Below are positions 1,403 to 18,172 of a DNA stretch of 36,399 nucleotides, piece after piece. The DNA is taken from positions 1 through 36,399 of the forward strand of contig JAYEGI010000159.1 in assembly GCA_034659035.1 (NCBI GenBank), read 5' to 3'. A program made the position numbers and the translations under genes. The notes beneath the pieces were generated by a model, which did not search any database, was not told the DNA's origin, and saw only the letters and a list, made by a program, of their open reading frames with translations. Source of the stretch: Methanobacteriota archaeon. Its GTDB lineage: Archaea > Halobacteriota > Methanosarcinia > Methanosarcinales > Methanogasteraceae. Each line of letters starts with the position of its first letter. The first letter of the stretch is position 1.

Positions 1403-1771
1403 CTACTTAGTTTCAGTCGTATTATCGGGCACATAGACCACCTCGCCGCTATCCAGTAGATATGTGGTACCCAGAACCTTTCCCATGCCGTAAACGTCCA
1501 CATCTGTTATCTTCTGGACCTCTACCGTCTCGCCCTGCTTGATTATGATCTCCATATCCGGTGTCCCAGGGTTCTTCACAATCGTCACATTCGATGTGGA
1601 TGAGACCAGTTCGGGGAGGCTGTGGTAGGTCACAAGCGCAAGCATCAGAGCAACCGCAAAGACGATCGCCACATCAAATAGGTTTGCCACGCCACTTAAG
1701 GGGTCGTCGTCCACGCCCGAACGTCCTCCGAAGTCTGATCGTCGTTTCCTTCCCATAAATCTTGTTTTCAT
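1403..1771 (-). CDS. DUF2149 family membrane protein (HmuV-like, ExbD-analogue)
   Basis: Motif DDDPLSGVANLFDVAIVFAVALM, IVKNPGTPDMEIIIKQG and C-terminal G.VVYVP. Overlaps the upstream MotA/ExbB gene by 4 nt. Confidence 0.9.
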   Translation of the reverse strand: MKTRFMGRKRRSDFGGRSGVDDDPLSGVANLFDVAIVFAVALMLALVTYHSLPELVSSTSNVTIVKNPGTPDMEIIIKQGETVEVQKITDVDVYGMGKVLGTTYLLDSGEVVYVPDNTTETK

Positions 1772-2352
1772 CGATCAGTCACCCCCTCCTTCGCAATCGA
1801 TAATTCTGCCATGTACTCCATGTCATCCAGGTCCTGCGAGTACCACCGCTGCCTGACGCTTGCAACCGTGAGCGCGACCGCACCGATCAGAAGCCCGACC
1901 ACAGTCGATGTGAACGCAATCACGAGATTGTTTGCCAGTTGTTCGATGTTTCCTGCAGTGAGTCCGAGGAGGGCCGGACCCAGTGGTATCAGCGTTCCCA
2001 TCAGGCCCAGCATCGGACCAATCCGTATCAGAAGGCGGGTATTTCCGAGTTTCCTTCCGGCTTCTGCCTCATACTCCTGGAGCAGCCGTCCGATCTTCAC
2101 AGAGAGCACGTTTTCATCGAGGGAGTTTTGGTGCTCTGCGACCAGTCTCTTCACTGCCCCACAAAAACCACTCAGATGGCCTCCGTTAAACTTGTCATTG
2201 AATACTTTGCTCCGTTTTGAGTATTCAGCGATCATATCGCCTGCGAACACGAAACAGAGAGCAACCAACAATATCAGCAATATCAGCACAGGATACAGCA
2301 TTGCATTGTTGATCGTAAGCAGAATCTTCATAAGCTCGTCCAGCAGTTCCAT
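1768..2352 (-). CDS. MotA/TolQ/ExbB proton-channel family protein (HmuU-like)
   Basis: RIGPMLGLMGTLIPLGPALLGL...LANNLVIAFTSTVVGLLIG signature with three predicted TM segments. Confidence 0.92.
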   Translation of the reverse strand: MELLDELMKILLTINNAMLYPVLILLILLVALCFVFAGDMIAEYSKRSKVFNDKFNGGHLSGFCGAVKRLVAEHQNSLDENVLSVKIGRLLQEYEAEAGRKLGNTRLLIRIGPMLGLMGTLIPLGPALLGLTAGNIEQLANNLVIAFTSTVVGLLIGAVALTVASVRQRWYSQDLDDMEYMAELSIAKEGVTDR

Positions 2353-2475
2353 TTTATATCACCTTTCCACATATTCCAGACAAAAACATCCCGGTCAGTT
2401 CTTTGTAGTTGAGAGCATAATTGAAAACTTCAATAAAAACACTCTGATTTTTATGGTGGTATGCACATGTTCGAA

Positions 2476-2597
2476 CATTCGTGCAATTCGCGTCATTCGC
2501 TACCATTCGTGATCTCTTGGTGTCGATTTTATGCCAACGGCTACGCTCGCTACGCTCACAGTCACGAATGCCATATTTGAACGAATGGCACGAATTG
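2476..2597. repeat. Imperfect inverted-repeat (REP/MITE-like) element built from ATTCG/CGAAT units
   Basis: Left arm CATTCGTGCAATTCGCGTCATTCGCTACCATTCGTGA (2476-2512); right arm TCACGAATG...ACGAATGGCACGAATTG (2562-2597); GCTACGCTC duplicated in the loop. Confidence 0.6.
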
Positions 2598-2712
2598 AGT
2601 AAATCGACAGAAATCTGCTGTGGTCGAATCGATCTCACACAAGCGGTAAAAGCCACCGGATTGCATTCCCTACCGATGTCGTTTATGTCAATCGCGTTGT
2701 TATGCCTCTGCT

Positions 2713-3852
2713 TCATCGTCTGCTCCTGTTAGCGATTCTGATTCTCCCTCGCATAAATCCGATACTGGTCATGAGCAGGATGAAGAGAAATCCCGGGATC
2801 ATATCGCTCACCGGAAATCCCTTGATCGATATATCCATCTCGCTTACGGGCAGATACGCGGGGACGAGCAGGATCGAGAGGAAATAGAGAAGCCCGAAGA
2901 ATATCATCATGCTTCCCAGATTCGAGGGCTTCTTGCTGAACCGGGTTCTTCGTAAAACCGTGGTTATCACGATAATCGTCGAAAAGAACACACCCCCAAC
3001 TAGTAAACCAGTTTTGAGAGCACTCATACCCGCGATCATAAGAAATGCACAGGTCAGAAAGATCGTTGCAAGCGATACAGGACATGGTAGCGCCATCAAG
3101 AGAAACGTTCTCCTACTGACATCTTTTTTTGTCTGGTTCCACTTCCTGACAGTGTAGAATCCAACAACAAGGAGCGATATCGCTATCGTCAGTTGAAACA
3201 CCCCGAATGCAAGCCCCATCCCAAAGAGGGTGCTTATCGATTCGTAAAGTGCATCACCAGCAACACTGATCACTGCACACATCAGAAACGGAACAACAAG
3301 GTAGACCGATGCGACTGCGAGAATCTCACGTGTATTCAGTCTGGAAAATCCCATCCCAAACGCTGCCTTGCTTGAGAACTTGAGCATACCGACGAATATC
3401 CCGAAGATCATAATGCCGCTTATGAGTGACTTCTCCTTGCACTCCCGTATCTTCGCATCGATCCACGAGTCGTCATAATCCAAATTGTTCTTTCTGTAGC
3501 CATCTCTTGCGAGTTCGTAGTATCTAAGAGCGGTATCACACTCTTTCTGTCCGGTGCAACAGTCACCTGCAAGACGGTAGCTTGAAGCAGCGGATATATG
3601 GTCCCCCGCCAACTCGAAATTTTCGGCTGCAAGAACGTAATGCATTGACGCATTCGTAAGGTCACTTGCGTCTCTGTAGCGCAGGGCAATTCTCCCATAC
3701 AAGACGCCTGCACCATCATAATTTTCCAATTCCGATAACTGTTCGGCATATCCGATGAGTTCCCCTGTGTCGGCATCCGCCTGATCCGCCTGACCGCTTG
3801 CAATCGCCATCGATGAGACGAGCAGGAGTAGTATGCATATTATCCTCTTTAT
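2713..3852 (-). CDS. DUF2162-like (HmuT-like) multi-pass membrane protein with an N-terminal signal peptide and TPR/alpha-SNAP-like helical domain
   Basis: C-terminal ~230 aa has about seven TM segments with K..FG.G and ALPCPV motifs and lies before MotA+DUF2149. N-terminal part has Ala/Tyr helical repeats. Start uncertain: ORF track gives 3909, but the signal peptide begins at ATA 3852 (IKRIICILLLL). Confidence 0.7.
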   Translation of the reverse strand: MKRIICILLLLVSSMAIASGQADQADADTGELIGYAEQLSELENYDGAGVLYGRIALRYRDASDLTNASMHYVLAAENFELAGDHISAASSYRLAGDCCTGQKECDTALRYYELARDGYRKNNLDYDDSWIDAKIRECKEKSLISGIMIFGIFVGMLKFSSKAAFGMGFSRLNTREILAVASVYLVVPFLMCAVISVAGDALYESISTLFGMGLAFGVFQLTIAISLLVVGFYTVRKWNQTKKDVSRRTFLLMALPCPVSLATIFLTCAFLMIAGMSALKTGLLVGGVFFSTIIVITTVLRRTRFSKKPSNLGSMMIFFGLLYFLSILLVPAYLPVSEMDISIKGFPVSDMIPGFLFILLMTSIGFMRGRIRIANRSRR

Positions 3853-3856
3853 CTCA

Positions 3857-5779
3857 TCACTTCCTTCTCGAATATCCGAATATTGTAAACACCAATAACC
3901 CCACCACAATCAGTGTCGCCATCATTGGCGTAGCCTTGATCGATGGAATCTCGATTCCCGAATCGAACCTCTTGATCGTCTTCACCTTCCCGGCCACCTT
4001 CTTCCCGCGAACCATCTCGCCCTTCTCCGAAGTATCCGCATAATTCGAGGCGGTCTCGTAGGTGTTGTTGGAACCGGCGATCTCGGAAAGCCCCTTCTTC
4101 ACATACACATCCTCTGCATCATTGCCTGTGACGGTATTCCCAACAAGCGTGGTGTCGTGCGCCTCGGTTGAGATGCGGATTCCGTTGGCAACAGAGGCAT
4201 CATCATTGTATGTGGAACCTTCTTTGTTCTCTGATGCGTTATTGTACCGGAGCGTGTTGCCGGGACCTCCCACGTAGATTCCGGGACCTTTGTTGTTGTT
4301 TACGATGTTGTTCTCGATAGCAAAGAAACTTGAGAGCTTGCACCGCAGAACGATTCCACCCGCCCCGTTTTCAGTCACCCTGTTGCCGGTTATGTTGTTG
4401 TACTTCGGCTTCATCTTCGTGTATATCCCGGCTTTTGTATTACCATAAACCGTGTTATTTGAGAGCGTGTTGTACTCTCCACCGTAGATAAAAATCCCAT
4501 TCCCCCCGTTCTCACAGCTCGTGCCCCTGCCTTTGTTGTGATGCACGAGATTGTTGCTGATCGTGCTCTCGTACACATACTGCATCTTGATGCCGTGAGT
4601 CGTCGTATCATCGATGTCGTTGCCGTTGTGATGCACGTTGCAATAATCGATCGTATTGTTCTTGACGATATCTCCTTTGATGTCATTTCCCCTGAGGTGA
4701 ATCCCATTGCAGAAGTTTTTGATCTCCAAATCTTTTATAACCAGATCATCGTGTCCTGAATTAAAGATTCCCGCACGCTCGGTCTCACTATCAGTGCAAT
4801 CTCCGGAAATCACGCCGTCCAGCGTGTATCCATTGCCATCGATCACGACACCATCCGCACCGATCACGAGACCGTGTCCTGACATGCAGTTAAGATCATA
4901 GTTAAAGGTGTAGCTCTCAGTAACGATATCGCCACACGCAAATATCATTCCGGGATCGCTCAGAGCTACGCACCCGCAGGTGGGGCTGCCGCGTTCTGTT
5001 TCATCCAGCACCCCGTCACTGGATTGCGTCCCTGATGCGGGGCAGGGATGCGTGCAGGGACAGCCACCGCCGCTGGAATCGGAATCGAGATTAGAATCGT
5101 TGTAGCCCTGCGCAATCGCACAGGAATTGTCACTGCCTGTGTTGCCTGTCCCTGATTCCACCACGATGTCGCCGCGTCGATTGTTGCAGACCGTGTTTCC
5201 GTGGAGAATATTTTCGCTTGAGTTGTCTATGTTTACCCCCATGCCGTTTACCGTCGTTATGCTGTTGTATCCGAGCATGTTTCCATTTGCAGCGTTTGAG
5301 AGAAGGATTCCGTGTCCACCATCGCCATAACCGACGGTATTTCCTGTTATGTTGGTGTGTGTCGAAGAAAATAGCCAGATGCCGCTTCCTTGCGTGTAAT
5401 CGATGATATTATCCCTGATCTCTCCGTTTTTGGCGTCTTTGAAATATATTCCGGAGCAGAACCCGCTTATCGTGAGGTTCATTATCATCACCCTGTCGCA
5501 TCCATCGTTGTGGATGCCTTCCCCGTCGTCGCCATGCTCATTGATTGTGATACTGTGTCCTGCGCCATCTACCGTGATCCCGTCCGCACCGATCGCGAGA
5601 CCGTATTGTTCCTGGCAGATCATGTCTTCGTTGAATATGCAGCTTTCAATCACGGTGTCGCCGCATCCGTAGTCTGTTCCTGTGACAACGCCGATGCAGC
5701 CTGCATGCGCGTTTCCGGCCAGAAAGAGCAGTAGCAGCACCGCAGACATCCGCATCCAGCCATTCATTCTTCGTTCCAT
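3857..5779 (-). CDS. Secreted Cys-rich right-handed parallel beta-helix protein (two beta-helix units, NosD/PbH1-like) with a C-terminal TM anchor
   Basis: Signal peptide ending GNAHA; GI.L/N.I..N repeats; CGD.V.ES..FN.D..C caps; ends LIVVGLLVFTIFGYSRRK. Start placed at ATG 5779 after a GGAGGGGAG RBS. Confidence 0.85.
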   Translation of the reverse strand: MERRMNGWMRMSAVLLLLFLAGNAHAGCIGVVTGTDYGCGDTVIESCIFNEDMICQEQYGLAIGADGITVDGAGHSITINEHGDDGEGIHNDGCDRVMIMNLTISGFCSGIYFKDAKNGEIRDNIIDYTQGSGIWLFSSTHTNITGNTVGYGDGGHGILLSNAANGNMLGYNSITTVNGMGVNIDNSSENILHGNTVCNNRRGDIVVESGTGNTGSDNSCAIAQGYNDSNLDSDSSGGGCPCTHPCPASGTQSSDGVLDETERGSPTCGCVALSDPGMIFACGDIVTESYTFNYDLNCMSGHGLVIGADGVVIDGNGYTLDGVISGDCTDSETERAGIFNSGHDDLVIKDLEIKNFCNGIHLRGNDIKGDIVKNNTIDYCNVHHNGNDIDDTTTHGIKMQYVYESTISNNLVHHNKGRGTSCENGGNGIFIYGGEYNTLSNNTVYGNTKAGIYTKMKPKYNNITGNRVTENGAGGIVLRCKLSSFFAIENNIVNNNKGPGIYVGGPGNTLRYNNASENKEGSTYNDDASVANGIRISTEAHDTTLVGNTVTGNDAEDVYVKKGLSEIAGSNNTYETASNYADTSEKGEMVRGKKVAGKVKTIKRFDSGIEIPSIKATPMMATLIVVGLLVFTIFGYSRRK

Positions 5780-5790
5780 CTCCCCTCCAT

Positions 5791-6681
5791 TCACCCTCCG
5801 AAACTCCCGACCCGCTCTGCAGACGCCATCTCGATGAACCAATCCCACCCCTCCCACACCATCCCGCTCTCCATCACCTCATCAGGCACCGGAACATCAG
5901 GGATCACCGGCACAAAACCCGCGTTCTGGGAAAATGACCTCTGCATACCGGGAGAAATCAGATAATCAGCCACCTTCTTCACGTCTTCGCCATACCCTTT
6001 CTTCAGCAGCATCACCTGCGGGAGTGCGAGCGCACCCTCTTCCGGCAGGCAGAAGGAAGTATTTGCCCCCCTCGAAAACTTTGCAAACGCGAGTGGCATG
6101 ATGCCGATCTCGTACTCGCCATCACCCACCGCACGATTGACATCTACAGGAGCGCCTTTGTATGAAACATCGTCCGCAACAAACTCCCTCCCCTGCTCGC
6201 CATGGCGATGGCTGAAGAAATTTCGAAACAGGATCGCTGGCGGCGTAGTCTTGCCTGTGCAGAGCACTTTGCCCCTGAACCGCTCATCAAGGAGCGACCT
6301 CCACGAGTCAGGAGGGTTCTCCACGTCTTTGTTATGGAATATGAGAAGCGGCATGACAAATACCGGTTTTAAGACCCACTCGCAATCAACAAAGCCTCCT
6401 GATTCAACAAAACTACCTGTGTCATACCTGTAATCCGTATCAAAGTAACCGGTCTCCACCAGATAATCCCGCTCTCTCATGATCTCCGGGCGGGTGACGA
6501 TGAGAAGATCAGGTATCCTATCCACGTTACCAGCCATTATCTCTTTCAGCATGCCATAATCATCTGCACGATGCCCTTTGGACGGGATTATCACCTCGGA
6601 ATCGGGACAACGTCTCTTTATATCAGTCGTCACATTCCTGCTAATATTTACAGGAACTGAAACATATATTCTACTGCACAT
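5791..6681 (-). CDS. ABC-type solute-binding-fold protein (AfuA/PotD-like) lacking an evident signal peptide
   Basis: PPDSWRSLLDERFRGKV, AVGDGEYEIGI, PEEGALALP and DYLISPGMQ are typical of class II SBPs. Start ATG 6681 follows GGAGGT. Confidence 0.75.
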   Translation of the reverse strand: MCSRIYVSVPVNISRNVTTDIKRRCPDSEVIIPSKGHRADDYGMLKEIMAGNVDRIPDLLIVTRPEIMRERDYLVETGYFDTDYRYDTGSFVESGGFVDCEWVLKPVFVMPLLIFHNKDVENPPDSWRSLLDERFRGKVLCTGKTTPPAILFRNFFSHRHGEQGREFVADDVSYKGAPVDVNRAVGDGEYEIGIMPLAFAKFSRGANTSFCLPEEGALALPQVMLLKKGYGEDVKKVADYLISPGMQRSFSQNAGFVPVIPDVPVPDEVMESGMVWEGWDWFIEMASAERVGSFGG

Positions 6682-7486
6682 AGTTACCTCCTGATAACTC
6701 CTTAAGTATAAGTGCTCTATCCGCACCCCAATCCGTATCATCCAGCACCCTCCCCCCTCTTAACTCCTGCCTCATGTCCACAAGGAACCTGTCAATACAA
6801 ACAAGAAACCTTAGTTGCTCCCTCTCGGTGCCGTTGGGTCGGATGAGTTTTAACATCGACCCGTTCTTCATTATCAGTCTCTTCTGTGCGGTAAGCATGA
6901 TTGTTGGATCGTGTGTTGCAATAAGAACCATCTTCCCCTCGGTTGCGAGCAGTTTTATCCCTCTCGTCTTGTCGATGCCCGCATTCTCGATCTCGTCTAT
7001 CAGAACGACAGGCGCATCGCTTATGAGTGCTGCATCGGCTATCATCAATGCTCTCGACTGCCCGCCGCTGAGCGAAGAGAGATGAGTATCCATCGAGATA
7101 GGCTCTCCTGCAAGCTCGTTTGTAAGCGCTATCACCTTTCGCCCGATCTCACCGTCTCTTATCATTAGCCCTCTGCTATTCGCATGGAGATTTACAAAGT
7201 CCCCAACATTCAGGTCCATCACAAAGTGCATATTCTGCGAGAGACTCGCGGTTATCCGGGTGCTGAATGGGTCTGCCACCGCACCATCAACGAGCACCTT
7301 TCTTCCGGACTGCGAGTCTCCGTTTGCAAGCTGCTCGATGTCAGAGAGGAGAAGACTCTTCCCGGAACCTGTGGGACCAGCTATCGCCATGACATCGCCC
7401 CTTCGGATCACCACCTCCTCTATTCCTTCCGGTTCCCCGTTTTTACCAGTTCCTGATAATATTCTCAGTTCATTGATGCCCATCAT
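6671..7486 (-). CDS. ABC-family ATPase
   Basis: Walker A GPTGSGKS, signature LSGGQ, Walker B VLIDEIE, H-loop ATHD. RBS GAGGTGA before ATG 7486. Confidence 0.9.
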   Translation of the reverse strand: MMGINELRILSGTGKNGEPEGIEEVVIRRGDVMAIAGPTGSGKSLLLSDIEQLANGDSQSGRKVLVDGAVADPFSTRITASLSQNMHFVMDLNVGDFVNLHANSRGLMIRDGEIGRKVIALTNELAGEPISMDTHLSSLSGGQSRALMIADAALISDAPVVLIDEIENAGIDKTRGIKLLATEGKMVLIATHDPTIMLTAQKRLIMKNGSMLKLIRPNGTEREQLRFLVCIDRFLVDMRQELRGGRVLDDTDWGADRALILKELSGGNYVQ

Positions 7487-7499
7487 GCCTGATATCACC

Positions 7500-8195
7500 T
7501 CAAACCTCCTGCACATCCATCTTTATCACGTTTCCCATCTGGTACTCCGGACCGATCAATGTCGCGCCTTCACAGTACGAGCAGACGGCAGCAGGCATAT
7601 CAGACCTGAGTTCCCTCTCGGTAAGCGTGTCCACTTCCGGCGCATCCGCAACCAGCCGCTTGAGGTTCAGCGCACCCATCCCGGTCAAGCCGTTCATCTC
7701 GACTATTTTCGCGTGGGGGTTGACCTTCTCGACGTTGGCACGGAAGACTTCCCGCTCTGCCTGCGATACCATGTCGCCCTTCGTTATGATCACCACATCC
7801 GCGGTTGTGAGCATGGGGCCGATCTTTCTGGGCGTCTCAATCCCGCTTAAGTTGTCAACGACTGCGATAGCCATGCAGCCCTTGATTGCGGGCGCACACC
7901 GGTGGCACAATCCCGCAGTCTCTACGATGGTGATATCCGCATCATGCACCTTACCGAATTTGAATATCTCCTCCACGTTGACGACACCATAATGGTCCGG
8001 GCAGACGTAATCGCTCAGCCCCACCACAACAGGAATTCCGAGCTTCTCCTTGTAGGTTGCGCCGTCAGAGGTCTCGAGGCAGTCTATCTTTCCGACGACC
8101 ACCTTCAAACCGTCCTGCTGCTGCAGCCTGATCAGATGTATCATGGAGAGCGTCTTACCTGAAGAAGGGGGTCCTGCTACGGTTATGAACTTCAT
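7500..8195 (-). CDS. HypB/UreG/CobW (G3E) family P-loop GTPase, putative metallochaperone
   Basis: GPPSSGKT, CPDH, ETAGLCHRCAP, TKGD (G4) and C-terminal CSYC. Confidence 0.88.
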   Translation of the reverse strand: MKFITVAGPPSSGKTLSMIHLIRLQQQDGLKVVVGKIDCLETSDGATYKEKLGIPVVVGLSDYVCPDHYGVVNVEEIFKFGKVHDADITIVETAGLCHRCAPAIKGCMAIAVVDNLSGIETPRKIGPMLTTADVVIITKGDMVSQAEREVFRANVEKVNPHAKIVEMNGLTGMGALNLKRLVADAPEVDTLTERELRSDMPAAVCSYCEGATLIGPEYQMGNVIKMDVQEV

Positions 8196-8292
8196 CTTGC
8201 TCCGAATGATTCGCGCTTTGAGACTTTGTATGTAAAAGTGGTATGTAAAAGTCTTTTAGTATCTTTTGGAATTAGATTCGGAAAAATACATG

Positions 8293-8364: not shown

Positions 8365-8397
8365 ATCTTCGTTGCCATGACCCAAAATATCCTTGTC

Positions 8398-9301: not shown

Positions 9302-11200
9302 CTACCGCCATTTCATGAACCTTCCGATCAGAAACACACCGGCAAACATGCAGATCACAAGTAACATCTCGTAGAAAGACACATCAACCCGGCGGAACGA
9401 TGTCTCGGTGTTGAGAGTGGAGCCTTCAGTGGACCTGGATGTTGGCATCGCAGACGGTTCCTCTGCCAGGCCGGTAACCTCGATTACAGGCACATCGGTT
9501 GAGGCTGCATAACAGTAACCACTACCCGCGAGTGATACCCACGGCGCGCCGAGAACTACCTGTCCGGGAGTTGTAAGCACAATCACATACTCAGTCTCGT
9601 TCGTCTGGTTCGCAGCAAGAAGGGTATGTATCGTCGGGTCTCCTGATATCAGTTCCGCACCCGGTGGCAGGACATCTGCCAGGTTGATAGTCGCGTCCAT
9701 ATTCCCTGCGTTTCTGACACTCAGCGTAACCGTAACCGTGTCGCCTTCCCGTATCTGCTCAGGATGCGCCGTCTTGTTAACAGTGATACATACCCCGTCC
9801 ACGGTTATCACATGACCATTCGACCGCACGCTGATATTCGTTTCACCCATCACAAACTCTGCGACCGCACCCGGAACCTCAAATACCCCTGGTCTTTCCG
9901 GCGCTATGTGATATGAGAAGCACAGAGACTCCGATGGTGCGATATTAAACATCCATCCCGGAGTCTCGTTGCCACTCAATCTGAAACCGGTTGGGACGGT
10001 ATCGTTCAATCTAACTTCGAGATCTCTTCTCCCAGTATTCTCGAGATCGATGCGCACCCATACCGATCGATCCATCGATATATGATCGTTCACCGTTTTT
10101 GTAAGTTTCAGATCAAATCTCGGCAGCACCAAAATCTCGGTTGAGGCAGACTCGGTGTACATCACACCCTTCTCGTCGAATCCTGTGACGTTGACCGAGA
10201 TTGTATATGGCTCTCCTTCGATATCATTGATCCCTGTTGGGACACGCAAACGTGCGTAAACCAATTTTTCAGACTCCTCGGCATTTTCCGAAGGAGCATA
10301 TATCCTTCGCTTGCTACCCTCGCCCGTAACCTCCATAGTAGGGATGTCGTTATGGAGATCTCCATCCCTGATTTTTATGGTTGCTGTGTCCCCACTGATC
10401 TTTATCTCGACGTTATTATCACCGCTCTTGACCGTGATTTTGTCATCATCTGATAATCTCAGAACTCGTTGACTACTCAGATAACCCACCCAGCCGAGTT
10501 TAAGATCTTCCCTGAGATACTTCAGGACGTCAGCGTCATCGCCCCAGTTGAACAGATAATCCCCCTCCTCCTCCGCGAGGAGGTTGCTGGGATGGTTGGT
10601 GAGATCACTTACCGCCTGAAGATCGCCGGGGTCAATCACAACATGCACATTCTTGAGTTCAGTATCGCCGATGTTCTCGATCTCGACAGTGACACGGATC
10701 TCTGAATCCTGTGGAGAGTAGACCTCACAGCCGGTTGTAATCTCAAGCGAGATCTCCGGCTTTGCCCGCTCGTAGAACGTGATTTGTATCAAAGGGTCAT
10801 CCCACTGTGTCGGAGTTTCCGACTCCGGATACTCATCAGTCTCGTTTACTATCGCGATTATGATTTCATCTTCCCAGTTCAGCCAGTCGCATACGTCCAT
10901 ATTCGGATCTATATGAAATGTCATCTCATTCACGCATGATGCGTTCAAGCACGACTCGTCGAGCAACTCGTCGCCTCGCGAAAGTTTCAGATATACCAGA
11001 TCAGTCTCTGGCACATAGTCTGTAAACTTGACTGTGTAGTTATTCACACGGTATGTTTCGCCTTTGTGGAGCGACTCACGTCCCGTGTCCGCCCAGTAAT
11101 CCGAATCGTCGGGATCAAGTGCGGACGCGGCGTCCACGAACACAAGGCACATCATGACCATTAGCATCAGCACCAGTCGGTGCACCGCTCGATCATTCAT
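9302..11200 (-). CDS. Cell-surface BatD/DUF11-like multi-Ig-domain protein with a C-terminal TM anchor
   Basis: Signal peptide; repeated V.V.I.N.G...L.D.VP.GF Ig-like modules; Ser/Thr linker; TM plus basic tail. Confidence 0.7.
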   Translation of the reverse strand: MNDRAVHRLVLMLMVMMCLVFVDAASALDPDDSDYWADTGRESLHKGETYRVNNYTVKFTDYVPETDLVYLKLSRGDELLDESCLNASCVNEMTFHIDPNMDVCDWLNWEDEIIIAIVNETDEYPESETPTQWDDPLIQITFYERAKPEISLEITTGCEVYSPQDSEIRVTVEIENIGDTELKNVHVVIDPGDLQAVSDLTNHPSNLLAEEEGDYLFNWGDDADVLKYLREDLKLGWVGYLSSQRVLRLSDDDKITVKSGDNNVEIKISGDTATIKIRDGDLHNDIPTMEVTGEGSKRRIYAPSENAEESEKLVYARLRVPTGINDIEGEPYTISVNVTGFDEKGVMYTESASTEILVLPRFDLKLTKTVNDHISMDRSVWVRIDLENTGRRDLEVRLNDTVPTGFRLSGNETPGWMFNIAPSESLCFSYHIAPERPGVFEVPGAVAEFVMGETNISVRSNGHVITVDGVCITVNKTAHPEQIREGDTVTVTLSVRNAGNMDATINLADVLPPGAELISGDPTIHTLLAANQTNETEYVIVLTTPGQVVLGAPWVSLAGSGYCYAASTDVPVIEVTGLAEEPSAMPTSRSTEGSTLNTETSFRRVDVSFYEMLLVICMFAGVFLIGRFMKWR

Positions 11201-11535
11201 CAGCCACCCTCCGGGACATACACCGTTGCACCATCCGCAGTCTCGCCGATCATCCCCATCACATTCGATATCTCAACCTCGACCATCTCATCAGTGACAT
11301 TAAGCATCTCGATCTCCTCGCCGTGTTTCACGATCACCTGCATATCAGGTGTTCCGGGGTTCCTCACGACCACAACATCCTCTTGTGTCAGAAGTTCGGG
11401 TATGCTCATGTGGATCAAGAGCATTACCATCAGTCCGAGAGCAAAGACCATCGCGGCATCAAAGAGGTTTGCAACGCCCGATAGCGGATCCTCATCCTCT
11501 TCTGCCGTTTCCGTCTTCCTATGCATATATTTCAT
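11200..11535 (-). CDS. DUF2149 family membrane protein (second copy)
   Basis: DEDPLSGVANLFDAAMVFALGLM, VVRNPGTPDMQVIVKHG, TVYVPE. Confidence 0.9.
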   Translation of the reverse strand: MKYMHRKTETAEEDEDPLSGVANLFDAAMVFALGLMVMLLIHMSIPELLTQEDVVVVRNPGTPDMQVIVKHGEEIEMLNVTDEMVEVEISNVMGMIGETADGATVYVPEGG

Positions 11536-12257
11536 TCTTCGCCTCCGAATAGCACCTCGCAGATGTACTGTATATCGTTCATGTCCTGCCTGTACCAGCG
11601 TGTCCTTGTTGTCGTGATCAGGTATGCCACAGAACCGATCAAGAGTCCGACAACGGTAGTTCCAAACGCTATGATCAGGCTTCCTGCAAGCGCCTCCACA
11701 TCACCCTTCGTAAGTGCAAGAAGCGCAGGTCCCATCGGTATCAGGGTTCCCATCAGCCCGAACATCGGGCCAAGTCGTACCATCGACTTTGACTTCTCAA
11801 GCTGCTTTGAGATCAGGAGATCGCATCGCTGGAGCAACTTCTCAATGTTTACCGGAAACAGCTTTTTGTAGGTTCCGGGGTTGTCCAGTCTGGTCTCCTT
11901 CTCTTTTATCGTGAGGAATCCGTCTAAGAACATGTATACAAACCGGCTTGTTGTGCAGTTGTTGAGTACATTGATTCCTTCCCTGAACTTGCCATCATCG
12001 ACAAGCATCTTCGCCTCGATGATCTCTCTTTCGATATCCGGTGACTCCTTCTTTGAGAGAACACCAGTCCCGGTACTCCTTCCTAACCTGCCCATTCTCG
12101 ACAGATACTCGACCGTAAAAACGCCGATCTCTGTTATGAGCCACAGCGTGAGTCCGAGCAGTACGATTATCACAGGATACATCAGTGATGTCGATATGGT
12201 ATATATCGCAGATTGCAGTATCTGCGGAAAGTGTGTTATGATTGATATAATGCTCAT
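11532..12257 (-). CDS. MotA/TolQ/ExbB proton-channel family protein (second copy)
   Basis: RLGPMFGLMGTLIPMGPALLALTKGD...LIIAFGTTVVGLLIG. Translationally coupled to both neighbours by 4-nt overlaps. Confidence 0.92.
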   Translation of the reverse strand: MSIISIITHFPQILQSAIYTISTSLMYPVIIVLLGLTLWLITEIGVFTVEYLSRMGRLGRSTGTGVLSKKESPDIEREIIEAKMLVDDGKFREGINVLNNCTTSRFVYMFLDGFLTIKEKETRLDNPGTYKKLFPVNIEKLLQRCDLLISKQLEKSKSMVRLGPMFGLMGTLIPMGPALLALTKGDVEALAGSLIIAFGTTVVGLLIGSVAYLITTTRTRWYRQDMNDIQYICEVLFGGEE

Positions 12258-15200
12258 CTGTTATTTCTCCTGTGTGTGATCAGTTCGCCACGGAATCCAA
12301 CGTAGAACAGTAGTAGCAGGGATAATGCAATTGCAACCGTAATCCCGCTGTGCGAGACCACCACCTCCGTAACCGCGCCAAAGAAAGGATTACTTCTGAA
12401 TAGCTGAGCTGAAACACGTTTCTTTGCAGCACGCCCTGATGCACTCTCGTTTCCAACGGTTTCATCATAGTTCCATGCCCCACCCACCCCATCTCCAGTG
12501 TTGACTTCACCAGGTTGAATTAAATCTTCGAGAGGTGTACCATCTCTCGGATCTACATGTGGACCTTTGACAGTATCATTTAAACCACCGATCTCGCCTA
12601 CCGATGTCGTATTGGTGTTGTTATTCTCATCCGATTCCTCTATCACATATCCGGAATCGGCAAATACTTCCAGTTCGTTTAACTCAAGCGCTGACGTCCA
12701 TGTGAACTTCACCTCGGTGTCTGTGCCCACTGCAAGATTTGGTTTGACCAGCGCAGTGCCTGCAGGATCTTTATTGACGGAGAGCTCGACCTCGAACGCT
12801 TCTTTAGTCTCAACGGTGCCAATGTTTGCAACCATAGCGGTGGCATCGTTTGGCAGAAACATGGAGATCTTATCAGGAACATCGATCCTAGTTATGATAA
12901 GGTCAGGGCGAGCATACCATTCGATGTTCATACAGTTGTTATCCTCGTCGAACTCAGAAATTATGCTATTGTAGTCTGCACAGACTTCAATCTCAGCACT
13001 GGAGTCTTCTGACATCGTGAACGTATGCTGTACTGTGGTGGTGCTGCTCTCATTCGCCCTCAATTCCTGAATTTCCATATCATACTCGGGATTTTTATCT
13101 ACATCGATGCGCACTGAGATGTTTGACGCATCCGCATTTCCGATGTTCTTCATTGTGTATTCGATCTCATATCCCGCATCAAGATTATCAGGGTTGACCC
13201 ATGTCGGTGAGATTTCAGTGATTGTGAGGTCTGGCATTTTGCCGCATAGATAGGTGCATCCGGCAGCAACACCGTCATCCCTGTAATTCTCTGTCGTGTC
13301 GCAGGTGTTCTCGTCGCCAGTGGTACCTGAGCCAGGCCCATACACCATGATATCACACACTTCATTTCCGCAGACCGTATTCTCCTGTAATTCATTGTTG
13401 TACGACCCGTCGCTCCTGCCCATATTGATTCCATTCCCCGTGTTATCGTTCACCGTATTATAGCTGATGGTATTTTCCCCACTGCCAATATATATCCCAT
13501 CGCCATAGTTCTTCTTCACAATATTGTCAGCGATTGTGTTATAATTTGAGCTACTGCACTTCAACACGATTCCCCCGGTCAAGTCATCAGTTACACCTGG
13601 ACCGTTGCCATTGCAAGATACTTCGTTGTCTGTGATCTTGGTGTGCTGCAGCCCCCTCTTACACCAAAACCCAGCTTTGTCGTTGTCGTGGAGAATGTTT
13701 TCCGTGATGACGTTATCGCCATATCTACTGCCACCTGCATAGATGAATATCCCGTTGCCGCCGCCATCACAGAAGCTGCCTGTTCCTTTGTTGCGGTATA
13801 TCTCGTTGTCCCGTATCGTGGTCTTGCTTACATAACACAGATGGATTCCGTGCGTTTTTATCTCTGATCCGGTATCAAAACCGTTGTCATATATGTCGCA
13901 GTTCTCTATGAGATTACCTTTGACCGGATCGCCTGAAACACCTTTAAGCGCGATTCCCGTGCAAAATCCCACAATCTCCAGATCGGTTATCGTAACGCCA
14001 TCGTGCTTCGCGTTGTATATCCCACTCGCCGTACATGGCGCTTCTTCGCCTGCATACGTACAGTCCGCACAGGTCACCCCTCCAATTATCGCAGATCCGT
14101 TGCCATCAATCGTGATATCATCCGCCCCGATAATCAATCCCGGTCCAGATGCACATTCCATAGTCCCATTGAATGTGCAGCTCTTCATCACCAGGTCTCC
14201 GCAGAAGTATGCATCACCTGACCCATCATCAGCAACACACGCCGCACCCTCGTTTGAGGGGGGCATGTATATATACTCCAGCGTATTCGGACGGCAGTTA
14301 TTCGCTTCGCGGTCCACCCAGAGTTCCTTCACAGTGTAGTTGCCAAATCCGATTTTGTGATAGAATATGTCTGCCGCATTGTTCTCAAGGACATTATCAG
14401 CACCGTCTGCACAGACCCAGATCCGGTCCTTGTTATAGTCGTCAGACAGCTCGTGTTCGTAATCGAATGTTTTATGCCGGGTATCACCTGGTCCCAATTT
14501 GTCAACCGGATCTTCTGCAATGCAACGGAACCTATCATCGATATGCAGGTATGTCGTGCTCGGATAGGCTTCACGAGACTTGTTTCTGTCGTTCTTTATC
14601 CTGTAACTGACGTTGTATCTTTTCTCGGTATGATTTACCCATTCCTCTCTCTTCCATGTAATTCTGAGGTCAGGCGGGGTCCATGGATATGTGCACCCGT
14701 AGATCATGCCCATAGGGCTACAATCCCAGTATTCCCGGGTGCGGTCACATGTGTTCTCGTAGCCTGAGTTCGTTCTATTAGTCGAGGTCTCGTCATTGAA
14801 GATATCCCCGGCATCGTTGTCGCCGATCGCACTTGCATTTATTGTGTTGTTTGTTGCATAAGGGCTGAAATAGATTCCATAACCCATGTTCCGTGCCACG
14901 GTGTTATTCAGAAGTAAGTTGTAACTCCCGCCAACAACGACGCCTGCGATACCGGTTCCGCGAGTATCATAGATTCTGCTGTTGCGCACTGTGCTATAAT
15001 CCGCAGTGAGGTTGATCCCGCTTTGAAGGTTCTTGCGCAGATTGCAGTTCTCAATCGTGCTGTCCCTTGCATTCTTTATCGCAATCCCGGTAGAGAAGTC
15101 CTTTACCTGCAGGTTCTTTACCGTAACGTTTGTCTGGTTGCTGAAGATTCCAATGCCTGTAAAATCCCCGATGATCGTATAGCCTGAGCCGTCGATTACG

Positions 15201-18172
15201 ATATCATCAGCACCAGCGATCAAGCCACCATTTGATAGGCAGTTCATGCTCCGGTTGAATATACAACTCTCGTTTACCACCATCCCGCAACTGAAGTTGT
15301 ACGTCTTGCCCACACAGACGCCGTTTGCGCCACCGCAATAGAAGATACATCCAACCGTTCCCTCGTCATTATAGTTGTCTGTCGTGTCACATGTGTTATC
15401 ATCGCCGAATGTTGAGGACTCATTTGCAGTGTCGATGATGTCCGCACCCTCGTTACCACAGACTGTATTGTTATATAAGAAGGTGACTCGGCCACCGTCG
15501 ATGAGGATTCCATCGCCAGTAACATTAGTACCGTTACCGTTCTTGCACCCGCTAACGATGTTGTCCGCGATCGTGGCATATCCCTGAGCCACACGGATTC
15601 CTGAGCCGGTGTTGCTTTGTACCAGATTCTTCGAGACGGTAGAGTTCGTTGTTCGGTCATACCCTATTTCCCAGCCCAGATTGACGCCGGTGCAGAAATT
15701 CACCAATTCGCCGCAATACCCGTTATCCTCTATCCGGTTACCTGTGATATTGAGGCACTTACAGGTAGAGGGCGCATAGATGCCTGAGTGGTAATTGTGA
15801 AATATGAGGCTATTTATAATGCTACAATAACTGCTGCCATCACCGATACCGTCATCGAAGTTGATCCCGTGACCCCCGCATACGGTTCCACCGCCTCCGG
15901 GGTAAATGCCTCCGGTATTATTGTAAACTTTGCAATCGTCTATGATGACATTGTGTGAGTTAACTATGGAGATTCCATAAGTGTATCTGCCCACAGCGCC
16001 GTTGTCGTGAACCGAGCAGTTCTCTATCCTGTTGTCATCTGCATAACCGATACCAATCCCGGTACAGAAGTTCCTAATATCCAGGTTCTTAATTGTCACG
16101 TTGTCATGTCCGAAGGGGATGCCAAGTTCAAAATCACAATTACGAATTCCGCTTCTTCGATAGTGGTGCGCCAAGTTCTCTGAACATCCGGACCGTTCTC
16201 CCAATACGCCAAAGCCCTTGCCGTCTATGACAACATCATCTGCTACTATTGACACACCTTTCGGGCAGTACATGTCACCGATGAGCGTGCAACTCTTGCA
16301 TATCTCCGCCGGATATGTGTGGACAGCACCCCAGCCCCCTCCACATGTGAAGCGTGTGCCATCAGCAGCCACACATGCACCACCCCCAAAGGTACCGTTC
16401 AGGCAGTGTCTGCCATCCTCCCACCCTATGCAGATAGCACAGGCAACGATCTCCTTATCTCCAGGCATCGTGAACGGTCCGATTGTGTGTCTATAACCAT
16501 CCCAGTAAAACGTGTCATATCCTATAGGTGGGACGGCCTCGGTTTCACTGAGATTGCCATCGATATAAACGGACAACGTGCTTTCATTCGAAGCAGCAGC
16601 TCCTATTTTAGCATTGTTACACACCTGGTATGTGATTTCAAACGTCTTATTTTTGCCATCGACCCATCTGCTCCATGCCGAGTGAACGAAGAGATATGCC
16701 AATCCGAACCTGTGTGATCGGAAGTTATTATCCTCATTACCCTCATTAACCACCTCCTCGTTGTCCGCACGGATCTTGATTGTTGTGGAATACTTTTTTT
16801 TTCCACGCAGTTCGAATGGACCGACTGTACTTGTATAGTTCTCACCTGACGCCAGTGCCGGAACCTGATCAAATCTCTCTTCGATACCAAGCAATCCTGA
16901 ATTGTGGAGGTGTGTTGTACTGCTACTCGCATTCGCAAGCCCGGCATTCTTTACTGTATACATGATCTCGAATGTTCGGTTTGTACGGTTGATCCATGTC
17001 TCTTTGTGGTCGGTGATCGCCAGGTCGGGCTTGCCGGTTGCAGGGCAGTCAAACGATTCTATATAACAATTGTTGGTTTCATCGCTTTCTAAAACCTCTT
17101 TATCAGTATCTGCGCAAAGCATAGCCACAACCTTTGTATTAGGTGAACAGGTGAACGGTCCTGAGATATTCTTGTACATATTGTCCGGGTAACTACCATG
17201 TGGCACCTCTATTGGATACGTTATATTAAAAGAAGAAACAACAGATCCATTAATTAAATCCGTAATATTGAGGGTTGCATTGCTGGGACCTACATTTACT
17301 TCTCCACAATTTGATATCCGATAGCAGATATTATACCTCCCATTTGCCCTATCAACCATTTCCACGAAACCACTCCGAGGATATGTGCTGGCTTGCAGGT
17401 CTGGCAGAGGACAATCCAGCTCTGCCTCATTGCAGTTGTTTGACTCATTGAACTCCTCGACCACACATCCACTGTCAGCACATACCGTAATCCATACGGA
17501 GTTATGTGGAAAGTCAAGTGGACCTACGGTGCTGCTATGGCTCTCACCCGCTGATAGTGGTCCGACAGCGTCGTTTGATACAGGAATGTCATCGATACGG
17601 ATGGTTGTGTCGCTCTCACCTGCATCTGCAGTCCCGGCGTTCTTCACCGTATAGGTGATGCTTAAAGTCTTGTTCTCCGGATCAACCACGTTTGCTGAGC
17701 AGTTGGTGATCTTCAGGTCAGGATATGGCTCAGCGAACTCGATTTCGAGGTTCCGTACAAATCCACCATAGCCAATATCATCTGCGGTTATGTTGTAAAC
17801 GGTCTCACTTGATGTCAGCCCATTGCTTGCATTGAATCTGATTATATCGCCTGTGCTAACATTCATTGAATTGGTCGGCATCTGATAATAGTTTGAAGTG
17901 GTATTTGTCCTCACCTCAAAGTTCTCACCCGTGTTCAGATTCATTACCGACACTATAATGTTCGATACCGGCTCATCATTGACGTAGGTGACACGTCCTG
18001 TGATGGCGAAAGGAGCTGTGTGATTCCAGCAGGAATCCAAAGACGCATCACGCAGGGTAATGTCCTCTACCGCGCTGTCACTGGTGATCAACGATGGCTG
18101 TGCGATTGCAAATGCAACACCTGCCAGGCACACCACTAGGAGGAACAGTGCGATCGACGGTCTCTCGCTCAT
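12254..18172 (-). CDS. Giant (1972 aa) surface protein: N-terminal 'X' module, multiple CARDB domains, three Cys-rich beta-helix units and a C-terminal TM anchor
   Basis: PDL.IT...N.G...CAD....V.E..E.NNC (CARDB) recurs; PbH1-like repeats; ends ALSLLLLFYVGFRGE...RRNNR. Confidence 0.88.
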   Translation of the reverse strand: MSERPSIALFLLVVCLAGVAFAIAQPSLITSDSAVEDITLRDASLDSCWNHTAPFAITGRVTYVNDEPVSNIIVSVMNLNTGENFEVRTNTTSNYYQMPTNSMNVSTGDIIRFNASNGLTSSETVYNITADDIGYGGFVRNLEIEFAEPYPDLKITNCSANVVDPENKTLSITYTVKNAGTADAGESDTTIRIDDIPVSNDAVGPLSAGESHSSTVGPLDFPHNSVWITVCADSGCVVEEFNESNNCNEAELDCPLPDLQASTYPRSGFVEMVDRANGRYNICYRISNCGEVNVGPSNATLNITDLINGSVVSSFNITYPIEVPHGSYPDNMYKNISGPFTCSPNTKVVAMLCADTDKEVLESDETNNCYIESFDCPATGKPDLAITDHKETWINRTNRTFEIMYTVKNAGLANASSSTTHLHNSGLLGIEERFDQVPALASGENYTSTVGPFELRGKKKYSTTIKIRADNEEVVNEGNEDNNFRSHRFGLAYLFVHSAWSRWVDGKNKTFEITYQVCNNAKIGAAASNESTLSVYIDGNLSETEAVPPIGYDTFYWDGYRHTIGPFTMPGDKEIVACAICIGWEDGRHCLNGTFGGGACVAADGTRFTCGGGWGAVHTYPAEICKSCTLIGDMYCPKGVSIVADDVVIDGKGFGVLGERSGCSENLAHHYRRSGIRNCDFELGIPFGHDNVTIKNLDIRNFCTGIGIGYADDNRIENCSVHDNGAVGRYTYGISIVNSHNVIIDDCKVYNNTGGIYPGGGGTVCGGHGINFDDGIGDGSSYCSIINSLIFHNYHSGIYAPSTCKCLNITGNRIEDNGYCGELVNFCTGVNLGWEIGYDRTTNSTVSKNLVQSNTGSGIRVAQGYATIADNIVSGCKNGNGTNVTGDGILIDGGRVTFLYNNTVCGNEGADIIDTANESSTFGDDNTCDTTDNYNDEGTVGCIFYCGGANGVCVGKTYNFSCGMVVNESCIFNRSMNCLSNGGLIAGADDIVIDGSGYTIIGDFTGIGIFSNQTNVTVKNLQVKDFSTGIAIKNARDSTIENCNLRKNLQSGINLTADYSTVRNSRIYDTRGTGIAGVVVGGSYNLLLNNTVARNMGYGIYFSPYATNNTINASAIGDNDAGDIFNDETSTNRTNSGYENTCDRTREYWDCSPMGMIYGCTYPWTPPDLRITWKREEWVNHTEKRYNVSYRIKNDRNKSREAYPSTTYLHIDDRFRCIAEDPVDKLGPGDTRHKTFDYEHELSDDYNKDRIWVCADGADNVLENNAADIFYHKIGFGNYTVKELWVDREANNCRPNTLEYIYMPPSNEGAACVADDGSGDAYFCGDLVMKSCTFNGTMECASGPGLIIGADDITIDGNGSAIIGGVTCADCTYAGEEAPCTASGIYNAKHDGVTITDLEIVGFCTGIALKGVSGDPVKGNLIENCDIYDNGFDTGSEIKTHGIHLCYVSKTTIRDNEIYRNKGTGSFCDGGGNGIFIYAGGSRYGDNVITENILHDNDKAGFWCKRGLQHTKITDNEVSCNGNGPGVTDDLTGGIVLKCSSSNYNTIADNIVKKNYGDGIYIGSGENTISYNTVNDNTGNGINMGRSDGSYNNELQENTVCGNEVCDIMVYGPGSGTTGDENTCDTTENYRDDGVAAGCTYLCGKMPDLTITEISPTWVNPDNLDAGYEIEYTMKNIGNADASNISVRIDVDKNPEYDMEIQELRANESSTTTVQHTFTMSEDSSAEIEVCADYNSIISEFDEDNNCMNIEWYARPDLIITRIDVPDKISMFLPNDATAMVANIGTVETKEAFEVELSVNKDPAGTALVKPNLAVGTDTEVKFTWTSALELNELEVFADSGYVIEESDENNNTNTTSVGEIGGLNDTVKGPHVDPRDGTPLEDLIQPGEVNTGDGVGGAWNYDETVGNESASGRAAKKRVSAQLFRSNPFFGAVTEVVVSHSGITVAIALSLLLLFYVGFRGELITHRRNNR

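Follow-up and report, generated by a model that had tools for sequence, protein, structure and literature searches.

We analysed a stretch of 36,399 nucleotides from an archaeon of the family Methanogasteraceae (GenBank assembly GCA_034659035.1, contig JAYEGI010000159.1, positions 1 to 36,399; hereafter the window), which carries two gene clusters on the minus strand. Each cluster encodes a candidate proton motor, composed of a MotA/TolQ/ExbB-family channel protein (MotA below) and a small DUF2149 protein, together with large secreted proteins held by a single C-terminal transmembrane (TM) helix. Comparison with related loci supports the conclusion that the MotA/DUF2149 module occurs with interchangeable, C-terminally anchored partners. 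More specifically, cluster 1 looks like a module of the CobN/HmuS chelatase type in which the enzyme body has been replaced and the tail kept, because a profile built exclusively from CobN tails retrieves the class of 640-aa beta-helix proteins found in this cluster and nothing comparable.

Cluster 1 is transcribed in the order beta-helix protein, a fusion of tetratricopeptide repeats (TPR) with the polytopic membrane protein DUF2162, MotA and DUF2149, and cluster 2 in the order CARDB/beta-helix giant, MotA, DUF2149 and DUF11-repeat protein (Table 1). Both MotA proteins exceed the curated cut-off of PF01618 (MotA_ExbB; 22.9 bits) and are thus members of the MotA/TolQ/ExbB family. Immediately 3' of each lies DUF2149, a co-encoded small single-TM protein with a conserved acidic residue in its helix: a short acidic cytoplasmic stretch is followed by one N-terminal TM helix and about 60 outer residues, predicted to form a small domain rich in beta structure, and the Asp of the NLFD motif within the helix is invariant in 18 of 18 sequences taken across all classes (alignment A1). 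Both this layout and the gene position are those of ExbD, TolR and MotB. Reading frames overlap by 4 nt between the giant and MotA, between MotA and DUF2149 in both clusters, and between the 447-aa beta-helix protein that heads cluster 2 and the giant; the DUF2149 and DUF11 frames of cluster 2 overlap by 1 nt. The frame of the 640-aa beta-helix protein is open to 5857, and the ATG at 5779 yields a signal-peptide-like N-terminus. The giant is composed of a signal peptide, CARDB repeats (seven stretches), three beta-helix modules (Beta_helix in five stretches) and a C-terminal TM helix. A first-pass annotation, made from the sequence alone, had described two beta-helix clusters in a window devoid of CobN; the gene families and coordinates are as it stated, except that its description leaves out the DUF11 gene that comes next in cluster 2, and CobN (PF02514) has zero matches among the 27 window open reading frames (ORFs) scanned.

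Both motor partners in the window end in one hydrophobic helix followed by a basic tail (...LLVFTIFGYSRRK and ...LLLLFYVGFRGELITHRRNNR). Their endings TIFGYSRRK and FYVGFRGE, earlier described as single TM anchors distinct from PGF-CTERM, read as quoted, and neither partner is matched by PF18204 (PGF-CTERM), whose only matches in the window are at 31248-32051 and 32048-33133. The 640-aa beta-helix protein carries a CobN-type tail, encoded at about 3857-4030 (VRGKKV...ATPMMATLIVVGLLVFTIFGYSRRK). The giant ends FYVGFRGE...RRNNR, with the junction between helix and basic tail at LLFYVGF/RGELI (the slash marks the junction), and the anchor of the DUF11 protein ends FLIGRFMKWR, with the junction at AGVFLIG/RFMKW. 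The tail of the 447-aa beta-helix protein (...VPGFTAAFSIAGLLLIVLVPGLESRRKR) has no G-[FYW] junction of the strict form defined below.

To compare such tails across loci, the C-terminal helix was located by hydropathy and the junction was read as the seven residues before the first Lys or Arg past the helix centre. A junction was called strict if G-[FYW] lies within 0-2 residues of the first basic residue, and loose if G-[FYWLIM] is accepted. Among 60 distinct CobN-like tails (proteins of at least 800 aa, bacterial ones included), 51 are anchored, 42 have the strict and 50 the loose junction; most of the nine unanchored tails are truncated at the end of a locus or belong to second or oppositely oriented copies. 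A typical CobN junction reads IYVGF/RRK, and the bacterial form is ...GY/RxRRG. Beta-helix/CARDB proteins directly upstream of MotA or DUF2162 number 29, of which 28 are anchored, 14 strict and 23 loose; four further partners with GF[HY]GEI escape the rule because the first basic residue comes later in them. A variant ending, YLIG/RFR, is seen in the DUF11 proteins that lie downstream of DUF2149. Background values were taken from 72 other anchored proteins of the same loci (two strict, of which one is a CobN fragment, and five loose, of which two are) and from 179 ORFs of at least 150 aa with such a tail in the genome itself (10 strict, 19 loose), where three of the ten strict matches are the two partners and the DUF2162 protein of the window. 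Aligned with the tails of methanogen CobN-like proteins, a comparison proposed in the first-pass annotation, the anchors thus have the G-[FYW]-basic junction in common.

Because the junction rule was chosen post hoc, we relied on a profile that is independent of it, built from the last 70 residues of 53 CobN-like proteins with no beta-helix sequence included. Searched against 10,932 ORFs (at least 50 aa) of the collected loci, this CobN-tail profile retrieves CobN ORFs, three short unlabelled ORFs that are probably CobN ends, and 14 beta-helix proteins of the cluster-1 type (class C) at E-values from 6.6e-5 to 3.7e-3 (2.2e-3 for the window protein), with no further match below E=4. A search of the 22,835 stop-to-stop ORFs of the genome itself gives two matches. 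The beta-helix protein of the window (E 4.6e-3, profile positions 19-70) is the only one that spans linker and helix; the other, a 173-aa protein on contig C292, was rejected as a CobN-type tail, being an ArsR-type helix-turn-helix regulator matched in its TM helix only. In the alignment the CobN consensus ..eeVeGkvMe..SfSgaPLmgivlVllalgliyaGFrrkr pairs with ..eMVRGKKV..IKATPMMATLIVVGLLVFTIFGYSRRK, and the window protein scores 21.8 bits with filters off.

A tail common to otherwise dissimilar proteins could also be a sorting signal. The motors would then serve the biogenesis of the giants, that is their extrusion through the S-layer, their positioning or their release, by analogy with GldLM/PorLM, a motor that powers type IX secretion of cargo with a C-terminal signal. 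The great size of the partners (up to 3173 aa), the common C-terminal signature on unrelated ectodomains and the one to two candidate cargo genes adjoining each motor speak for this alternative, which we nevertheless consider improbable. The partners carry ordinary signal peptides and stop-transfer anchors, and the signature sits at the cytoplasmic end of the helix, which is not where sortase-type signals are located. Furthermore, the single tail found genome-wide by the CobN-tail profile argues against a dispersed set of cargo, and CobN/HmuS-type partners are enzymes that stay membrane-bound (PMC12583661).

The company of the module elsewhere was surveyed in three samples: about 56 DUF2149 neighbourhoods from the family and order of the window, 20 from other families of the class, and, from a scan of 185,579 species genomes that yielded 367 loci, the best 80 (loci are designated L, contigs C). 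ORFs were labelled, after family-first gene calling, with hidden Markov models made from Pfam-checked proteins of the genome itself, which are less sensitive than Pfam. At the class level, DUF2149 is present in 101 of 151 genomes, mostly in single copy; within the family of the window it is present in 17 of the 18 other genomes, with at most eight matches per genome. The resulting partner table covers 117 non-redundant MotA+DUF2149 modules, mostly archaeal, and its counts are not archaea-wide frequencies because the sample was deliberately enriched for the family of the window. CobN lies downstream of 27 modules and upstream of 13, a beta-helix-containing protein upstream of 18, a CARDB giant upstream of 10 and a DUF11 protein, downstream only, beside 9; six modules are cut by a contig end. 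The usual order in Methanosarcinaceae, Methanoculleus, Methanoregulaceae and the anaerobic methanotrophic (ANME) group ANME-1 is DUF2162, MotA, DUF2149 and a CobN-like gene (1466-2042 aa), while bacterial loci (Planctomycetota, Myxococcota, Gammaproteobacteria) read CobN, MotA, DUF2149. The earlier statement that cobN-like genes typically precede the membrane genes consequently needs restricting: it is correct for the hmu operon of Bacteroidota (PMC11681262) and for five bacterial modules, but in the mostly archaeal sample CobN follows DUF2149 in 27 modules against 13 in which it comes before.

We then placed the 117 modules in a quick IQ-TREE phylogeny of concatenated MotA and DUF2149 (LG+G4, SH-aLRT only), in which several long branches are flagged. 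Each partner type (CobN, beta-helix, CARDB giant, DUF11) is in its own well-supported clade. Cluster-1-type modules, with beta-helix protein and DUF2162, form a clade of 11 rows that includes two from ANME-1 (SH-aLRT 100, stem 1.03) and falls, together with the archaeal modules linked to CobN, into a set of 70 rows (support 90); the bacterial CobN modules are placed apart from all others. A superclade of 27 rows without DUF2162 (support 100) contains the cluster-2 type with its beta-helix/CARDB partners (8 rows, two of them from ANME-1, support 99), a CARDB-giant clade (9 rows, support 97) and a DUF11 clade (10 rows, support 99) with the order long MotA (417-463 aa), DUF2149, DUF11. Partner labels change 17 times on the tree, compared to 48-67 times in 200 shuffles, and beta-helix versus the rest changes only 2 times. 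The adjacency of motor and beta-helix gene, one of the points on which the earlier interpretation turned, is conserved: the beta-helix gene lies upstream in 10 of the 11 rows of the cluster-1 clade, the eleventh being cut by the contig end, and in all 8 rows of the cluster-2 clade. Taken together, the clade-by-partner pattern, the shared junction and the CobN-only tail profile support, at the comparative level, the proposal that MotA/DUF2149 accepts interchangeable TM-anchored partners.

Gene order points in the same direction beyond the motors themselves: judged by sequence, the two clusters of the window are one conserved double-motor locus, present in Methanogaster-like (ANME-2c) and three ANME-1 genomes. 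A single contig holds both motors in the window; the same is true of L089, L090, L092 and L095 and, within ANME-1, of L097 and L098. A further ANME-1 locus (L120) contains the cluster-1 part only. The first half of L089, L090 and L095 reads beta-helix/CARDB protein, MotA (~250 aa), DUF2149 (116 aa), DUF11 protein (632 aa) and a homologue of the 249-aa secreted protein of the window; the second half reads beta-helix protein (~635 aa), TPR-DUF2162 (~400 aa), a 150-aa protein resembling the methyltransferase families PEMT and ICMT, MotA (~194 aa) and DUF2149 (120 aa). L092 starts inside the first DUF2149 gene. The two ANME-1 records L097 and L098 have the same motors and beta-helix partners, with two methyltransferase genes in place of the DUF11 gene and the 249-aa gene. 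Relatives of the giant occupy the same position in L056, L062, L089, L090, L095, L097 and L098, homologues of the 249-aa protein are in the same place in L089, L090, L092 and L095, and a DUF11 gene follows DUF2149 in classes E and F. The beta-helix protein of the window and its ANME-1 homologue share 56% identity over 624 aa, and the two DUF2162 proteins 49%; in the last 25 residues of the beta-helix protein, comprising helix and junction, 16 of 25 positions are identical. Within motor 1, MotA is 62-93% identical to its class-C homologues, and DUF2149 83-91% identical in ANME-2c relatives and 68% in ANME-1.

This conservation bears on the simplest alternative, according to which the adjacency has no functional meaning, the motors happening to lie in a variable island of surface genes and the tails being ordinary positive-inside anchors. 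The window is indeed rich in surface proteins (cohesin, dockerin, CARDB, PGF-CTERM), and a short motif defined post hoc can arise by chance, the strict form being present in 10 of 179 anchored ORFs of the genome. However, gene order is kept across ANME-2c and ANME-1 despite 56% protein identity, reading frames overlap, each partner type has its own motor clade, and a profile made of CobN tails only retrieves class-C tails specifically. We regard this alternative, already disfavoured, as very improbable.

Not all of the locus is conserved. The genes for a CobW-family GTPase, an ABC ATPase and a solute-binding protein (SBP) that lie between the clusters (5791-8195) are found there only in the window and not in L089, L090, L092 or L095. 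At the position of the spacer of cluster 1, relatives encode the 150-aa ICMT/PEMT-like membrane methyltransferase (L090:7953-8405; PEMT 40 bits, ICMT 35.3), of which the window spacer keeps a 13-residue remnant (tblastn E 0.04); the same-genus loci L036, L037 and L046 have no gene at this position. The 120-aa ORF at 2354-2716 is probably not a gene. Downstream of the cluster-1-type module, L089 (9652-11490) and L090 (9652-12765) encode a large protein that combines three stretches of CbiX (class II chelatase) with FmdE and a dockerin, and its orthologue in the genome of the window lies on another contig (C273:9711-12653). The CobW-ABC-SBP insertion and this CbiX-FmdE-dockerin neighbour hint at metal or cofactor handling as the business of the beta-helix protein; neither gene set is conserved across the class.

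The DUF2162 protein raises a different possibility, namely that the system is a proton-driven importer in which DUF2162 forms the channel, MotA/DUF2149 energises it for a metal, a tetrapyrrole or another small molecule, and the ectodomains only capture or process the substrate, with no coupling through the tail. DUF2162 is polytopic and has an invariant PCPxC motif in a helix together with a nearly invariant His and further Cys residues (alignment A5, 34 sequences), a pattern that suggests metal or thiol chemistry in the membrane. The CobW, ABC ATPase and SBP genes of the window and the CbiX-FmdE-dockerin gene downstream in L089 and L090 are likewise consistent with import, and HmuTUV has been proposed to move heme or iron across the inner membrane (PMC12094164, PMC13227078). 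We nonetheless judge this reading unlikely. The 27-row superclade that includes cluster 2 has motors and anchored partners without DUF2162, five bacterial modules in the tree, with CobN upstream, also have no DUF2162 match, and proteins that are mere neighbours would need no conserved tail across unrelated ectodomains. The AF2 model of DUF2162 (mean pLDDT 84.8, all-helical) offers no informative structural match: Foldseek against PDB returns nothing at E<=0.001, the best Z of 7.9 from VIA-align wide is within the helical-bundle background, and the modelled fold allows no functional inference. A literature search for DUF2162 returned nothing. The TPR part of the window protein scores 29.5 bits for TPR_12, just below the cut-off of 30.1, and 32.4 bits in the L089 homologue.

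The explanation that we consider best overall starts from the shared tail. The locus would be a conserved surface locus of ANME type with two motors driven by the proton-motive force, each formed by a MotA/ExbB-family channel and DUF2149 and each co-encoded, in overlapping frames, with one or two large extracellular proteins held on a single C-terminal helix. Cluster 1 would derive from an ancestor consisting of chelatase, DUF2162, MotA and DUF2149, in which the chelatase body gave way to a two-lobed beta-helix ectodomain and the CobN-type tail was retained (V-x-G-x-x-M, a linker, [AT]-P-[LM]-M, the TM helix and G-[FY]-x-basic). Cluster 2 would fall in a separate superclade of motors from which DUF2162 was lost and whose clients are CARDB/beta-helix giants and DUF11 proteins. 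With about even odds, in our estimate from these comparisons, the partner docks on the MotA/DUF2149 motor by its tail, protons flowing through the motor move the tail helix, and this movement takes the ectodomain through a conformational cycle outside the cell, where ATP cannot be drawn on. The ChlI/ChlD AAA+ motor drives CobN and ChlH, and the NosFY ABC transporter does the same for NosD. The proposed mechanism fits because these prototypes of the ectodomains are NTPase-driven where NTPases are accessible, while the versions described here would lie outside the membrane.

Several results weigh against this explanation. No recognised partner gene lies beside 34 of the 117 modules. The junction motif was defined after the data had been seen, class D has only its loose form (G-I/M-R), L076 and L056 have PGF-like anchors, and the partner on contig C97 ends in a dockerin domain without an anchor. 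With filters off, the cluster-2 giant scores 8.2 bits against the CobN-tail profile and the class-D giants 4.5 bits, in both cases at the junction only, and a search at database scale leaves the cluster-2 giant undetected. The tree statistics make the modules look more independent than they are, because related genomes inherit their partner labels by descent. Complex prediction for MotA, DUF2149 and a 75-aa tail at 1:1:1 (not 5:2) gave no answer (score 0.01, mark 0.32), which counts neither for nor against binding. As for expression, no RNA datasets are listed as matching 1403-11400; DNA datasets that match this interval are metagenomes from brine, marine sediment, cold seeps and vents, most of which share only a small fraction of its sequence words.

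The relation of DUF2149 to known motor subunits likewise counts against a close parallel with TonB systems. There is no match of DUF2149 to PF02472 (ExbD/TolR) in the window scan, hhalign of 117 DUF2149 against 9 bacterial ExbD sequences gives a probability of 0.3%, and a PDB sequence search finds nothing below E=1. The AF2 model of DUF2149 (mean pLDDT 58.4, a TM helix and five strands) was too poor for a fold search, and an ESM Atlas structure search returned DUF2149 clusters only. Archaea of this group are not known to have an outer membrane, and TonB_C (PF03544) has 0 matches in the genome, which is 85% complete. Since DUF2149 is not tied to ExbD by profile and no TonB_C occurs in the genome, the term TonB-like is for this motor an analogy and not a statement of membership. 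A similar caution applies to the 640-aa beta-helix protein, for which NosD orthology was rejected (NCBIfam NosD_copper_fam 57.9 bits, cut-off 300); in NCBIfam only a generic parallel beta-helix repeat is above cut-off.

Within the genome of the window (contig C159 of an assembly of 2.41 Mb in 293 contigs), a profile search finds four MotA and four DUF2149 genes, and adjacent pairs occur twice in the window and once on contig C259. The latter contig reads DUF2162, MotA, DUF2149 and has no partner gene; its module is 92-94% identical to that of Candidatus Methanogaster sp. (L153) and 90-93% to L160, and, relative to Methanocomedens, Methanovorans and Methanosarcina, 44-52% for DUF2162/MotA and 62-70% for DUF2149. 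By these identities the host of the window is ANME-2c-like. Contig C115 (L010) begins with DUF2149, followed by DUF11 and a 2034-aa CARDB/DUF3344 giant; contig C97 reads C-terminal part of CobN, 864-aa DUF3344/CARDB/dockerin protein, MotA and another gene; contig C120 reads ChlD-like protein and N-terminal part of CobN. We also considered whether C97, with MotA at its end, and C115, with DUF2149 at its start, are one split locus; this was rejected, as the contigs have no overlap and a gene follows MotA on C97. CobN matches are confined to C120, C97 and C115, so that CobN is present in the genome yet not beside the window motors. The first-pass annotation had named a cobN-like gene just outside the window, serving these motors, as a finding that would speak against it; none is adjacent. 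Directly after the giant on C115, two short CobN-like fragments (C115:8066-8387; 60.7 and 29.8 bits) may be the remnant of a former CobN partner.

Table 1. Genes and other features of the two motor clusters and their surroundings in the window
Feature	Position	Strand	Family matches and remarks
447-aa secreted beta-helix protein, PGF-like C-terminal anchor	18169..19512	-	Pfam Beta_helix 67.5 bits, NosD 52.3 bits; heads cluster 2
1972-aa CARDB/beta-helix giant, partner of motor 2	12254..18172	-	CARDB 246.7 bits, Beta_helix 136.7, NosD 106.9
MotA/TolQ/ExbB-family channel protein, 241 aa, motor 2	11532..12257	-	PF01618 38.6 bits
DUF2149 protein, 111 aa, motor 2	11200..11535	-	PF09919 79.1 bits
632-aa surface protein with DUF11 repeats; follows motor 2 as its second anchored partner	9302..11200	-	PF01345 46.7 bits
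249-aa secreted protein, CGWC motif, C-terminal anchor; conserved member of the locus	8398..9147	-	
CobW/HypB/UreG-family GTPase	7500..8195	-	Pfam, NCBIfam
ABC ATPase	6671..7516	-	Pfam, NCBIfam
SBP_bac_6 solute-binding protein	5791..6741	-	Pfam, NCBIfam
640-aa two-lobed parallel beta-helix protein, partner of motor 1	3857..5779	-	NosD (PF05048) 104.8 bits, Beta_helix 104.3 bits
Fusion of TPR and polytopic DUF2162 membrane protein; start codon uncertain	2713..3909	-	DUF2162 134.1 bits
Spacer with 120-aa ORF (2354-2716), probably no gene	2353..2712	.	
MotA/TolQ/ExbB-family channel protein, 194 aa, motor 1	1768..2352	-	PF01618 39.9 bits
DUF2149 protein, 122 aa, motor 1	1403..1771	-	PF09919 97.4 bits
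DUF454 (YbaN-like) small membrane protein	793-1191	-	132.4 bits; directly 3' of motor 1 DUF2149

Among the remaining genes of the locus, the 249-aa CGWC protein has no Pfam or NCBIfam family match; three other loci encode a fusion of 484-486 aa in which a beta-helix domain precedes its homologue (L036:1967-3421, L037:15544-17001, L046:7908-9368). Adjoining the motor locus, a run of secreted cohesin, dockerin, PKD, fn3 and Big_5 proteins (25678-36107), including two PGF-CTERM anchors and one rhodanese domain, looks like a cellulosome-like surface scaffold in its domain content.

Variants were also seen in the other module classes. The MotA of class E, linked to DUF11, is twice as long (417-463 aa; e.g. 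L053:4281-7861), and several genomes have, ahead of it, a gene for a KaiC-like ATPase (318.9 bits) and two ORFs of roughly 100 aa without a family match, the second of which has a tail that looks membrane-spanning. The order DUF2149, DUF11, CARDB giant of L044 (G153:C233) is preceded by an ABC ATPase gene and not by MotA, and that of C115 by the contig end. Class-D CARDB giants (L040:7044-14213) additionally contain a PQQ-type beta-propeller (111 bits) and a weak squalene-hopene-cyclase-like stretch, and their tails have the invariant ending ...HGIRKERGRYRR.

On a wider scale, we tentatively propose that an ExbB/ExbD-like proton motor has diversified in ANME archaea into five or more classes, and that a C-terminal docking helix common to the partners would let each class drive a giant surface protein of its own by mechanical means. 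If so, a modular motor plug would let cells work on enzymes and adhesin-like proteins outside the membrane, and HmuS-HmuUV of gut Bacteroidota would be explained in the same way. The beta-helix/CARDB versions are, within the best 80 of the 367 loci, common to ANME-2c and ANME-1 only, and they might act on the matrix or on partner contacts of methane-oxidising consortia. For ANME biology, the locus amounts to a lineage-restricted surface system common to both groups. More generally, archaea have apparently reused a motor of the MotA/ExbB type for several giant surface proteins that are unrelated to each other, with cluster 1 as a clean-looking swap of the body on a kept tail. In the literature searched, supplements excluded, neither beta-helix, CARDB, DUF11 or other non-CobN partners of these motors nor the shared tail are described. 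A term search of a large comparative study of ANME genomes (PMC9012536) finds none of MotA, TolQ, CobN, ExbB, CARDB, beta-helix, chelatase and DUF11.

The closest characterised relative of the module is the hmu operon of Bacteroidota, in which hmuY and hmuR are followed by hmuS (CobN-like), hmuT, hmuU (MotA/ExbB family) and hmuV (DUF2149) (PMC11681262). HmuS, a heme de-chelatase bound to the membrane, is predicted to carry a TM helix at either terminus (PMC12583661, PMC13227078); cytoplasmic CobN and ChlH do not have these helices (PMC13227078, PMC12583661). The roles of HmuT, HmuU and HmuV are stated to be unclear, and models assign HmuUV to an outer-membrane receptor or to inner-membrane transport (PMC12583661, PMC13227078); DUF2149 (arCOG03208) has also been listed as a membrane protein linked to TolQ (PMC9425974). 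Archaeal cells without outer membrane and without TonB carry the same motor pair as HmuUV, and the conserved C-terminal helix is the one feature common to the different partners of the motor. Together these points suggest that the anchored enzyme itself may be the client of the motor, which bears on the open question of HmuUV.

Compared to the hmu operon, the window has the same pair of MotA/ExbB and DUF2149 genes (PMC11681262), and HmuS is extracytoplasmic with a signal peptide and a C-terminal TM helix, like the window partners (PMC13227078). The G-[FYW]-basic junction occurs in the sampled bacterial and archaeal CobN-like partners, a comparison set that lies outside Bacteroidota HmuS. In contrast, the window has no CobN/HmuS body, HmuY or HmuR, its host has no outer membrane, and its partners are a beta-helix protein and a CARDB/beta-helix giant. 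No CobN gene lies beside either motor; a CobN-type tail is found in cluster 1, and the junction motif only in the cluster-2 giant.

With NosD of the NosDFY system, the 640-aa protein has in common a family of periplasmic parallel beta-helix folds (PF05048). It differs in that no NosY-type permease is found among the ORFs scanned and in that the co-encoded energiser is MotA/DUF2149 and not an ABC transporter. The ExbB-ExbD-TonB and TolQ-TolR-TolA systems have the same PF01618 channel, a small single-TM protein with an essential-looking Asp in its helix, and a third protein on one TM helix that would take the motor output. Here, however, no kinship of DUF2149 with ExbD is detected, TonB_C has no match in the genome, and there is no outer membrane to reach. 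TonB and TolA furthermore have an N-terminal TM helix, whereas the helix of the window partners is C-terminal, with the N-terminus predicted outside. Finally, relative to the CobN modules of methanogens and ANME archaea, cluster 1 keeps DUF2162, MotA, DUF2149 and the CobN-type tail of the partner; it differs in the beta-helix ectodomain, in the TPR gained on DUF2162, and in the position of the partner gene, which is upstream here and mostly downstream for archaeal CobN.

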